Source: a virus
Taxonomy: Duplodnaviria > Heunggongvirae > Uroviricota > Caudoviricetes
Virus record (IMG/VR): IMGVR_UViG_2534681835_000038
Span: 1 to 13,488 of that record
Strand: one strand, 5' to 3'
Length of the DNA stretch: 13,488 nt
Shown: positions 6,799 through 7,938 of the stretch, piece by piece
Layout of the letters: every line of letters begins with the position of its first letter
Position numbering within the stretch: the first letter of the stretch is position 1
Position numbers and translations under genes: made by a program
The notes under the pieces: generated by a model
Database searches by the model: none
Seen by the model: only the letters and a program-made list of their open reading frames with translations
What the model was told of the DNA's origin: nothing

Positions 6799-7397
6799 GC
6801 AACCTCACTTCTGCTGTTTCGCAGTTTTTTAAGTTTCTGTTGATACTCCGCCTTGATGGCCCTGCACTCTTCGACAGTCCAGCGATAGCGGTTATGGTTT
6901 GATTCGATTTCCTCTACTGCTTCCTGCCCGATGCGGCTAATCAGTTCGACGCGATACGGAACGAGATTTCCGCTTTTGTGCTGGTTGCACACCACGCATT
7001 GCTTGTGAATATTGCGTTCATCAAATCGGAGTTGAGGTGCCGCAGCAGTTGTCCGGTAATGTCCGGCATCCCACTGAGCAGACGTGAGCGTTCCGCACGA
7101 GATACATGGTAAGTCGCGGTCTCTTTCTCTGATGAAGGCGTTTACGGCTTGTTGGGCTTGTTTAATCCAGTAACTGCGGGGCTTTAAGGCGAGTTTTCGA
7201 ATCTTCAGTTTATCTTTCTGTTTCTGCTCCTCTCGTCGTAGTTTCTTCTCTGCTGCTTTTTCCGCTTTTTCGCGTTCTTTACTTCGTCGTTCGAGTGCTA
7301 TCTTGGTTCCACAAATCTCATTACACCAATATTGATTTTGATATTTTGGTATAAACCATTCATTGCAACATTTACATTTCCTTCGATAGATTCGCAT
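6795..7397 (-). CDS. ninG: NinG (Rap-like recombination protein), re-initiated with a new N-terminus
   Basis: From [23 protein letters not shown] to the C-terminus the protein is near-identical to lambda NinG. The N-terminal 25 aa ([29 protein letters not shown]) are AT-rich and diverged but keep the Cys pattern. ATG 7395-7397 has a strong SD (AAAGGAG, 7-nt spacer) located inside the 3' end of the HNH ORF. Stop overlaps the ninI start. Confidence 0.85.
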
Positions 7398-7938
7398 AAG
7401 TGCTCCTTTCGTTGCCGGAAAAATCACCGTAATACTTATCTCGGGCTTCTTCAGCAACTAGTACCGCTAACTCCAGATCATCAAAGCATCCGAAGTGTTT
7501 ACTCTTGCCATGGAATCCTAGCCTAACATTCCATTTTTTCTGTCGTTTGTGCCAAGTAACCCCTCTGCAACCTGATTTGCTATTCTTTCGGATCCTTATA
7601 TTTCTTGAATTTTCTATTGGCAGGCATTCTCTTAAATTTTCTGGCCTATTGTCGGTCCTAATTCCATTAACGTGGTCAATTTGACCAGCAGGCCAACGAT
7701 TATGAGTTATGTAAAAAACTAAGACGTGAGTTTTATATCTACGCCCATCTATCATGATCATTGAATAACCGTTGGAATCAAAAGTTCCAGCAACACTATT
7801 TAATGCTATCCTTCCCTGAGTGGGAACTTTCCATCTAAATACCCCGGTAGATTTATCGAAACTTAGTAACTCAAATATCCTTTTAACAGTTAAATCTTCT
7901 CTTTTACGGTTACATCGTCTTCGCGCTGGTTTAGCCAT
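7372..7938 (-). CDS. HNH homing endonuclease with C-terminal AP2-type DNA-binding domain, fused in-frame to the first 9 codons of ninG
   Basis: Starts MAKPARRRC (identical, protein and DNA, to the lambda ninG start) then an AT-rich HNH body: TGVFRWKV..., HNH motif [20 protein letters not shown]2-like [48 protein letters not shown]. The ORF-track upstream extension to 8019 is rejected. Confidence 0.8.

Follow-up and report, generated by a model that had tools for sequence, protein, structure and literature searches.

A putative free-standing HNH-AP2 homing endonuclease gene at the start of ninG in lambdoid phages and prophages

When an open reading frame (ORF) for an HNH endonuclease begins with the first codons of another gene, and that other gene then starts afresh inside the end of the endonuclease ORF, it must be asked what has entered the locus and how the resident gene was preserved. 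Such an arrangement is found at ninG of an E. coli prophage, in a stretch of tailed-phage DNA from IMG/VR (record IMGVR_UViG_2534681835_000038, positions 1 to 13,488); the whole of this 13,488-nt stretch is called the window below. A first-pass annotation had read the locus as a homing endonuclease gene (HEG) that split its target gene ninG and rebuilt a functional product downstream, and had suggested that the endonuclease may also have delivered an adjacent AT-rich block, here called the cargo. As far as sequence comparison can tell, a free-standing, non-intron HNH-AP2 endonuclease gene does lie within the 5' end of ninG and uses the ninG start, whereas the suggested role in delivering the cargo was not supported. 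We consider it likely that the gene is a free-standing HNH(HNN)-AP2 HEG, and that it forms, together with a foreign ninG 5' end that would provide target immunity, a single module.

Layout of the ninG locus

All nin-region genes of the window are on the minus strand, and coordinates are window positions. The locus consists of the following parts.

7938-7372, minus strand: HNH(HNN)-AP2 endonuclease ORF, 188 amino acids (ATG 7938-7936, TAA 7374-7372).
7397-6795, minus strand: NinG/Rap ORF, intact, 200 amino acids (ATG 7397-7395, TGA 6797-6795).
7955-7939, minus strand: 3'-end remnant of ninF with the original ninG Shine-Dalgarno sequence GGAGG, the left homology arm, 17 nt; BLAST matches to lambda and ETEC1718 start at 7951/7955, and the remnant aligns with ninF in 21 HEG-positive loci that lack the cargo.
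7938-7910, minus strand: first 29 nt of lambda-type ninG (ATGGCTAAACCAGCGCGAAGACGATGTAA; ATG, 8 codons and 2 nt), now the start of the endonuclease ORF.
7909-7314, minus strand: imported 596-bp module, comprising the endonuclease body and the foreign ninG 5' end; junctions placed by BLAST and MAFFT against lambda.
7409-7403, minus strand: Shine-Dalgarno sequence AAAGGAG of the re-initiated ninG, within the 3' end of the endonuclease ORF, with a 5-nt spacer to the ATG at 7397.
7397-7314, minus strand: diverged AT-rich ninG 5' end, 84 nt or 28 codons, presumed to be an endonuclease-resistant version of the target region.
7313-6795, minus strand: right homology arm, formed by the lambda-like rest of ninG (96.9% identity to lambda ninG).

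The insertion point and the divergence around it were defined by aligning the locus with lambda ninG and, in a wider alignment, by setting 60 HEG-positive loci against 81 HEG-less lambda-type ninG loci (80 from IMG/VR, and lambda; MAFFT, fast settings). In lambda, the counterpart of 7951-7910 is the ninF end with the initial 32 nt of ninG. Counted from the ATG, the opening 29 nt, or nine codons and 2 nt, are identical in lambda and in the 80 other HEG-less loci, confirming that the endonuclease ORF opens with the first nine lambda ninG codons. The DNA becomes lambda-like again at 7313, as had also been noticed, and from there to 6795 it follows lambda ninG from nt 97 to the stop. Between the two junctions (left 7910/7909, right 7314/7313), 596 bp stand in place of 64 bp of lambda-type ninG (codons 11-32; lambda 42461-42524), so the event was a replacement and not a simple insertion. 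The restart of ninG from its own Shine-Dalgarno sequence and ATG was correctly recognized in the first-pass annotation, but its overlap with the HNH ORF, which is in a different frame, is 26 nt including the HNH stop and not 25, and the stretch that was rightly described as diverged and AT-rich covers 28 codons instead of 25. The GC content is 39.1% in the endonuclease body and 28.6% in the new ninG 5' end, compared with 48.9% in the rest of ninG and 52.2% in the retained ninF/ninG start, and by these differences the module stands apart from the surrounding sequence. In the window, the remainder of ninF is replaced by the AT-rich cargo. The arrangement is far beyond chance, and hundreds of genomes have the same structure at 98-100% identity.

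The endonuclease lacks its own start and is fused in frame to the first nine codons of the resident ninG. By borrowing this start, it inherits the ninG Shine-Dalgarno sequence and, where ninF is present, translational coupling to ninF. No promoter-like site was found in 7250-8500; promoter-less free-standing HEGs are known to ride the operons of their hosts (PMC2988022). From the layout, the endonuclease would be translated from the old ninG initiation region within the N-dependent nin transcript, and NinG would be translated by coupling from the new Shine-Dalgarno sequence and ATG in the last 26 nt of the endonuclease ORF. Because NinG is re-initiated within the endonuclease ORF, the coupling chain from ninF through the HNH gene to ninG would be kept and the host gene would remain functional.

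The endonuclease and the exchanged NinG N-terminus

The 188-residue protein matches Pfam HNH_3 (PF13392) at residues 68-107 (42.7 bits, cut-off 24.8, 4.2e-11) and phrog_99, 'HNH endonuclease', at 1.4e-71. Two domains are assigned to it.

7737-7600, minus strand: His-Me finger nuclease core, residues 68-113, with the boxes WP, DH, DNR, NLRE and EN.
7572-7426, minus strand: predicted C-terminal AP2-type DNA-binding domain, residues 123-171, with a sub-threshold Pfam AP2 match and three strands plus a helix predicted.

These five boxes, together with the absence of Cys dyads, are those of the free-standing 'HNN-AP2' enzymes of Xanthomonas phages (PMC2248197). In an alignment with 12 distant homologues (31-42% identical), D88, H89, N101, L102, R103 and N110 were invariant, D88, H89, N101 and N110 being among the catalytic and structural residues of the beta-beta-alpha-metal motif. 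Judged from its sequence, the protein is a member of the HNH(HNN)-AP2 homing-endonuclease family with an intact catalytic motif. The C-terminal domain is probably a DNA-binding AP2 domain: several homologues have a precomputed PF00847 match, and in an AlphaFold2 model based on the homologue alignment (mean predicted local distance difference test score, pLDDT, 86.7) the predicted AP2 fold, with pLDDT >90, fits the plant AP2/ERF domain of AtERF1 (1gcc) with a root-mean-square deviation of 1.3 A over 51 columns (TMt 0.67). The AP2 domains of TEM1 and WRI1 were also matched, and the Foldseek E-values for this domain are weak (0.02-0.4). The best fold match of the protein in the PDB was I-HmuI (1u3e, probability 1.00, E=0.012).

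Both ends of the model are of low confidence, with block means of 58 (residues 1-10) and 64 (residues 171-180) and values below 50 for residues 178-188. Residues 1-10 are derived from ninG, and most of the overlap with the new ninG start falls within residues 178-188; the 12 distant homologues lack about the first 10-15 residues and extend to about residue 176. These limits fit with N- and C-terminal extensions imposed on the enzyme by the ninG context.

The endonuclease belongs to one tight protein cluster. A search of 5.8 billion proteins gave 464 members at no less than 90% identity, next relatives at 47% or below, and nothing in between. Thousands of relatives at 25-45% identity were seen in T5-, T7-, T1-like and other phages, and the nearest ones outside the cluster lie in T7-like, T5-like or unrelated contexts, none of them near ninG. 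A scan of GTDB species representatives for relatives of the endonuclease gave only a 39% match in Planctomycetota.

The NinG encoded downstream matches its family, PF05766, over nearly the whole profile (279.5 bits, 1.9e-83, profile positions 5-192 of 193). It is 89% identical to lambda NinG, the differences all being clustered within the first 30 residues; from residue 30 on, all but about nine columns (roughly 95%) are invariant in the comparison with lambda, Stx2a-type and Emek NinG. The new 5' end is homologous to the lambda N-terminus over its full length, with RRKC at the start where lambda has RRRC. All four cysteines of the N-terminal cluster are kept, as the first-pass annotation had it, but their pattern is not, the first pair being CX2C (CX2C...CX3C) here and CX4C in lambda (CX4C...CX3C). 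A functional-looking NinG is thus re-initiated behind the split in the target gene, but instead of having been rebuilt it seems to have received its N-terminus as an imported foreign 5' allele.

NinG 5' ends are naturally polymorphic. Over the first ~30 codons, the lambda, Stx2a/933W and Emek types share only 49-74% identity, compared with about 95% over the remainder of the gene.

L151 786-1391, L152 801-1409 and L002 3011-3625: loci compared with window 7314-7397 for this natural mosaicism of NinG 5' ends.

In the Stx2a/933W type (CX2C...H), a His replaces the fourth Cys. The HEG-linked allele has the shorter CX2C loop as in this type, shows ~52-57% nucleotide identity to the lambda-, Stx2a- and Emek-type 5' ends, and is far more AT-rich than any of them. 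All NinG alleles turn conserved at GGAAC(C/T)AAG, which is the exact right junction of the module. We infer that the new 5' end is a complete ninG 5' allele of some low-GC donor phage, carried in with the endonuclease. The 64-bp stretch that it supplants is almost invariant among lambda-type alleles, which makes the diverged 5' end the obvious candidate for an endonuclease-resistant version of the target, and the exchange would give the carrier immunity. NinG/Rap is itself a His-Me finger nuclease (group 24), so that two nucleases of this fold stand in tandem at the locus. One HEG-positive ninG (locus L014, ~4796-5565, at window 7143-7151) is interrupted by an insertion of ~768 bp with a 9-bp duplication of ninG sequence at its sides, IS1-like by its size and duplication only.

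Spread of the module and competing explanations

The arrangement had been taken to be unusual in the nin region, which proved wrong: it is common and routinely annotated. Among 5426 complete E. coli genomes, 537 are HEG-positive at 99-100% identity, including O157:H7, O26, O111 and O145, so that the same HNH protein occurs at the same site in hundreds of genomes. It is also present in the Stx1 phages AU6Stx1 and SH2026Stx1 (98.1% identity over 1266 nt, annotated as 'HNH endonuclease' and 'NinG'), in 59 IMG/VR contigs and in a P22-like prophage of Salmonella Infantis. The backgrounds range from short-tailed Stx1 phages to lambda-like and, in Salmonella, P22-like prophages, with or without ninH, ninI, ninF and the cargo. 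The junctions are the same in all 60 aligned HEG-positive loci, and the uninterrupted site is found in the 81 HEG-less loci and in hundreds more E. coli genomes with the lambda-type junction. Full-text literature searches aimed at the arrangement gave no description of an HNH gene in ninG, and the SH2026Stx1 genome announcement does not mention it. The element is already annotated in public genomes, and is an uncharacterised addition to a well-known class of mobile elements.

Diversity is distributed very unevenly across the HEG-positive loci. For the endonuclease body, nucleotide diversity (pi) amounts to 0.0044, and for the new ninG 5' end to 0.0022, compared with 0.023 in the left 46 nt and 0.027-0.075 in ninG to the right, where 55 HEG-positive loci show 35 haplotypes. 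From locus to locus, the module is 99.3-100% identical and the adjoining ninG segments are 84-100% identical. The flanks of HEG-positive and HEG-less loci diverge from each other (dxy) about as much as either class varies internally (pi), the first 65 bp included, and the two classes have polymorphisms in common as close as 8 bp to the right junction (C/A at 7305) and ~30 bp to the left one. One HEG-positive flank is the same as a HEG-less flank, and for most others a HEG-less allele can be found at ~7 differences or fewer (at up to 48 for a few), while they differ from other HEG-positive loci at up to 58 positions. A near-invariant module between flanks as diverse as those of HEG-less alleles means that the module has moved between backgrounds. 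The pattern looks like that of a recently and repeatedly transferred element, and does not by itself prove that the nuclease drove the transfer. Two HEG-positive loci (L012 and L066), one with the cargo and one with an intact ninF, were found in a single genome (IMG 2690316149), which would fit with transfer between co-resident prophages.

From the behaviour of free-standing HEGs (PMC2988022), we infer how cleavage, the target position and immunity, as well as the origin of the module, could fit together. During lytic growth of a HEG-positive phage beside a HEG-less lambdoid phage or prophage, the enzyme would cut or nick lambda-type ninG in or close to the 64-bp segment that is missing from its own allele. 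The break would be repaired from the HEG-positive template, with ninF and the ninG start as the left arm and ninG from codon 33 as the right arm, so that the module would be copied in and, with its swapped ninG 5' end, would make the new carrier immune. The left junction, which is abrupt inside codon 10 with no homology beyond it, may be the scar of the first illegitimate capture by a broken lambda-type ninG, and the right junction may stem from a homologous crossover where all NinG alleles become conserved.

Other explanations of the nuclease have to be considered. The in-frame fusion to an upstream 'exon', as in many intron ORFs, would suit an endonuclease encoded by a group I or II intron, with RNA splicing joining the two ninG parts. 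However, when both strands of 6500-8600 were scanned against Rfam with permissive settings, not a single match came up at E<=1, and the two ORFs overlap out of frame. NinG segments are duplicated on either side: the downstream NinG has its own Shine-Dalgarno sequence, ATG and full-length N-terminus (RRKC against RRRC), which duplicates the nine upstream codons, so splicing would yield no sensible protein. On this sequence evidence the intron is effectively refuted, and the chance that we give it is next to nil. The nuclease might instead serve another purpose of the phage, namely interference with or superinfection exclusion of lambdoid rivals, or a packaging-associated function like that of HK97 gp74. 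HNH nucleases have such roles in other phages, cutting the ninG of a rival would harm a competitor (a mechanism that overlaps with homing), and PADLOC gave a weak match to ZorE (E=0.007, 24 residues). This match is insignificant and was the only one PADLOC gave, and the defence-system reading was rejected on that ground. A terminase-associated HNH of the gp74 type was likewise rejected: the gene is not beside terminase or portal genes but in the nin operon, ~6 kb from the terminase in the E2865 prophage, and HNH_3 plus AP2 is typical of HEGs and not of the short PF01844 type. Moreover, there is no promoter-like site upstream and the nin operon is N-dependent, so the gene is expected to be silent in lysogens; ninG is non-essential, and cutting it alone would be a poor weapon unless the break were lethal. 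Another purpose of this kind therefore seems improbable to us.

A more serious rival is that the module travels passively, as a fossil or inactive HEG or with some other role, having been captured once in the distant past and then spread by Red/RecA recombination and clonal expansion of Shiga toxin-producing E. coli (STEC) without any drive today. Much of what weighs against the homing reading speaks for it. No diversity trough is seen beside the module (pi in the first 65 bp is 0.025 in HEG-positive and 0.020 in HEG-less loci), so the co-conversion footprint of frequent homing is not visible. The prevalence of ~10% is largely that of related, clonal STEC lineages (O157:H7, O26, O111, O145) and not of independent transfers, and HEG-positive and HEG-less lambda-type ninG apparently occur together in many genomes, with matches at up to 5-6 places in one genome (median 1-2, depending on the query). 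The nin regions are notoriously mosaic, NinG 5' ends are polymorphic with their boundary at the same spot, and ordinary homologous recombination among lambdoid phages could move the module. Variants at conserved positions exist, namely N101S and a frameshift in locus L063. Also to be set against homing are the Pfam AP2 match (PF00847), which is under its cut-off (22.2 bits, cut-off 33.3, E=1.8e-4), the Foldseek E-values, which are all weak (0.012 or higher), and the literature, in which we found no paper on cleavage or biased inheritance by the 188-residue HNH protein. Finally, the donor lineage of the AT-rich ninG allele was not found in phage, GTDB-representative and protein searches: tblastn of the N-terminus against the phage collection gave no HEG-linked 5' allele away from the HNH gene (other NinG alleles being ~60% identical), a 40-residue query for a HEG-less carrier gave only E. 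coli fragments of the HEG-linked allele, and HMMER over 1.84 billion representatives gave one fragment of it and otherwise 39% identity or less. On the other side, the endonuclease ORF is intact in 59 of the 60 loci with all its catalytic residues, whereas truncations would be expected of a decaying HEG, as in Xanthomonas phages (PMC2248197). Its variable sites are 11 synonymous and 12 non-synonymous, a ratio of ~1:1 where ~1:3 would be expected if unconstrained. Across at least 35 flank haplotypes and two genera, DNA only a few bases from the module is 5-10 times as diverse as the module itself, which calls for rapid and recent spread. Passive carriage thus appears unlikely to us, although it deserves to be kept in mind, and we prefer the free-standing HEG with its own ninG 5' end. 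That this HEG is an active homing element, which on induction or co-infection cuts and converts the HEG-less ninG of lambdoid phages, including Stx phages, and drags the neighbouring 2.8-kb cargo along, is a narrower proposal that we put forward tentatively, as doubtful but quite possible. If true, a homing endonuclease would drive nin-region mosaicism and the spread of the cargo among prophages of enterohaemorrhagic E. coli (EHEC).

Neighbouring genes, related elements and significance

The cargo block (7956-10766, 34% GC) consists of a single gene for a 590-residue protein on the plus strand, opposite to the nin operon, in place of most of ninF. A 1-nt indel in the window splits it into ORFs of 328 and 275 amino acids (8456-9442 and 9481-10308, plus strand). 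The protein matches phrog_9230 and has no Pfam or PADLOC match; the full gene is present in 251 of the 5426 E. coli genomes. The order ninF-HNH-ninG without cargo was seen in 21 of the 60 aligned HEG-positive loci (20 IMG/VR contigs and ETEC1718), as well as in ~18 complete E. coli genomes (e.g. ETEC1718 and TUM1880) and a Salmonella locus, and where the cargo is present the ninF remnant lies between it and the HEG. In O157:H7, only the proximal ~185 bp of the cargo are left, beside an IS30 remnant. When the 5426 complete E. coli genomes were searched with a chimera of the cargo flank and a HEG-less lambda ninG, the cargo flank was never found joined to a HEG-less ninG, the only matches being two-piece ones through the HEG. 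The HEG is thus wider and older than the cargo, which entered a HEG-positive lineage; entry into an already HEG-positive lineage is, from these sequences, most simply the history of the cargo. Given this distribution, we rejected as unsupported the suggestion that the endonuclease delivered the cargo, while hitchhiking of the cargo with the HEG is possible. The HNH gene and the cargo gene are divergently oriented, and the intergenic DNA between them contains a hexanucleotide tandem repeat at 8133-8221 (AAATAG/GAAATA, 14.8 copies, 98% matches), whose copy number varies between loci that are otherwise ~100% identical: E2865, AU6Stx1 and many IMG/VR alignments break at 8163-8193. A terminator-like hairpin with a T-run, found as a consensus match only, lies at 8066-8082 (minus strand), ~130 nt upstream of the HNH start and on the strand of the nin operon.

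On the other side of the pair, ninH is absent from the window and the ninG stop overlaps the ninI start (ATGA, 6795-6798). In lambda, ETEC1718 and many HEG-positive loci, ninH lies between ninG and ninI, so either arrangement can follow the module. The ninI (Ser/Thr phosphatase) homologue (6134-6798, minus strand) is frameshifted, with 157 amino acids compared with 221 in the 99.9%-identical E2865 prophage. With ninI frameshifted and the cargo gene split, both neighbours of the intact HNH-ninG pair are pseudogenes in the window copy.

Further away, a lambda-type integrase gene (11797-12867, plus strand; Phage_integrase and Arm-DNA-bind_1) is placed just past ninE (10812-11090, minus strand), similarity to the E2865 prophage ends at 11042, and ninE lacks the replication and immunity region that would be expected upstream of it. 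This points to a rearranged or truncated prophage, or to two adjacent elements. A 252-residue ORF (4518-5276, minus strand; phrog_1521) lies in an island of 30-37% GC (trough 4350-5100) downstream of the Q antiterminator gene (5514-6137), and is likely to be a moron, being at the position that stx has in Stx phages.

The combination of HNH_3 and AP2 is a recognised homing-endonuclease architecture, placed in His-Me finger group 2 with I-HmuI (PMC5714182) and found as 'IPA-HNH' in ICP1 (PMC10448857); HNH-AP2 homing endonucleases go back to Magnani et al. 2004, as cited in these two papers. The ninG enzyme shares with the HNH(HNN)-AP2 family of the Xanthomonas phages Xp10, Xop411 and OP1 (PMC2248197) the order of an N-terminal beta domain, an HNN-type His-Me finger and a probable C-terminal AP2 domain, the same motif boxes and the lack of Cys dyads. 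It differs from other members in having at most 47% identity to anything outside its own cluster and ninG-encoded N- and C-terminal extensions, and it is the only member seen at ninG. It also resembles the free-standing HNH and GIY-YIG HEGs of T-even phages (mobE, segF and segG; 'intronless homing'; PMC2988022, PMC2790892): in both, a promoter-less cassette is co-oriented with the host operon, present in some and absent in other related phages, and host gene expression is preserved. The target is presumed to lie in a neighbouring conserved gene of DNA metabolism, and differences in the target sequence would protect the carrier. Unlike those intergenic elements, the putative ninG HEG has entered the beginning of a coding sequence, from which it borrows nine codons while supplying a substitute 5' end for the gene; its hosts are temperate lambdoid phages and prophages, not lytic phages. 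The nearest precedent is gene 31 of the Salmonella phage epsilon34 (PMC2629481), in which the N-terminus of eaE, a resident early gene of this P22-like lambdoid phage, continues in frame into a putative HNH homing endonuclease. It differs from the ninG HEG in its place in the early left operon, in belonging to an HNH lineage related to enzymes of Lactobacillus phages, and in that no replacement 5' end is reported for it.

Homing endonucleases have mostly been studied in lytic phages such as T4, T5, ICP1 and Skunavirus. The ninG element would offer a handy model: empty sites abound in nature, the insert is small and lambda genetics are unrivalled. It would lend itself to asking whether recombination between co-resident prophages, the Stx phages of EHEC among them, is shaped by homing. 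It also explains the 'split' or N-terminally divergent ninG genes in ~10% of E. coli genomes and cautions against reading the adjacent AT-rich gene as cargo of the HEG. Current concepts are unchanged by this instance of a known phenomenon, which presents a tidy, intron-free way of entering a coding sequence, in which the start codon of the host gene is borrowed and a spare 5' end is brought along.

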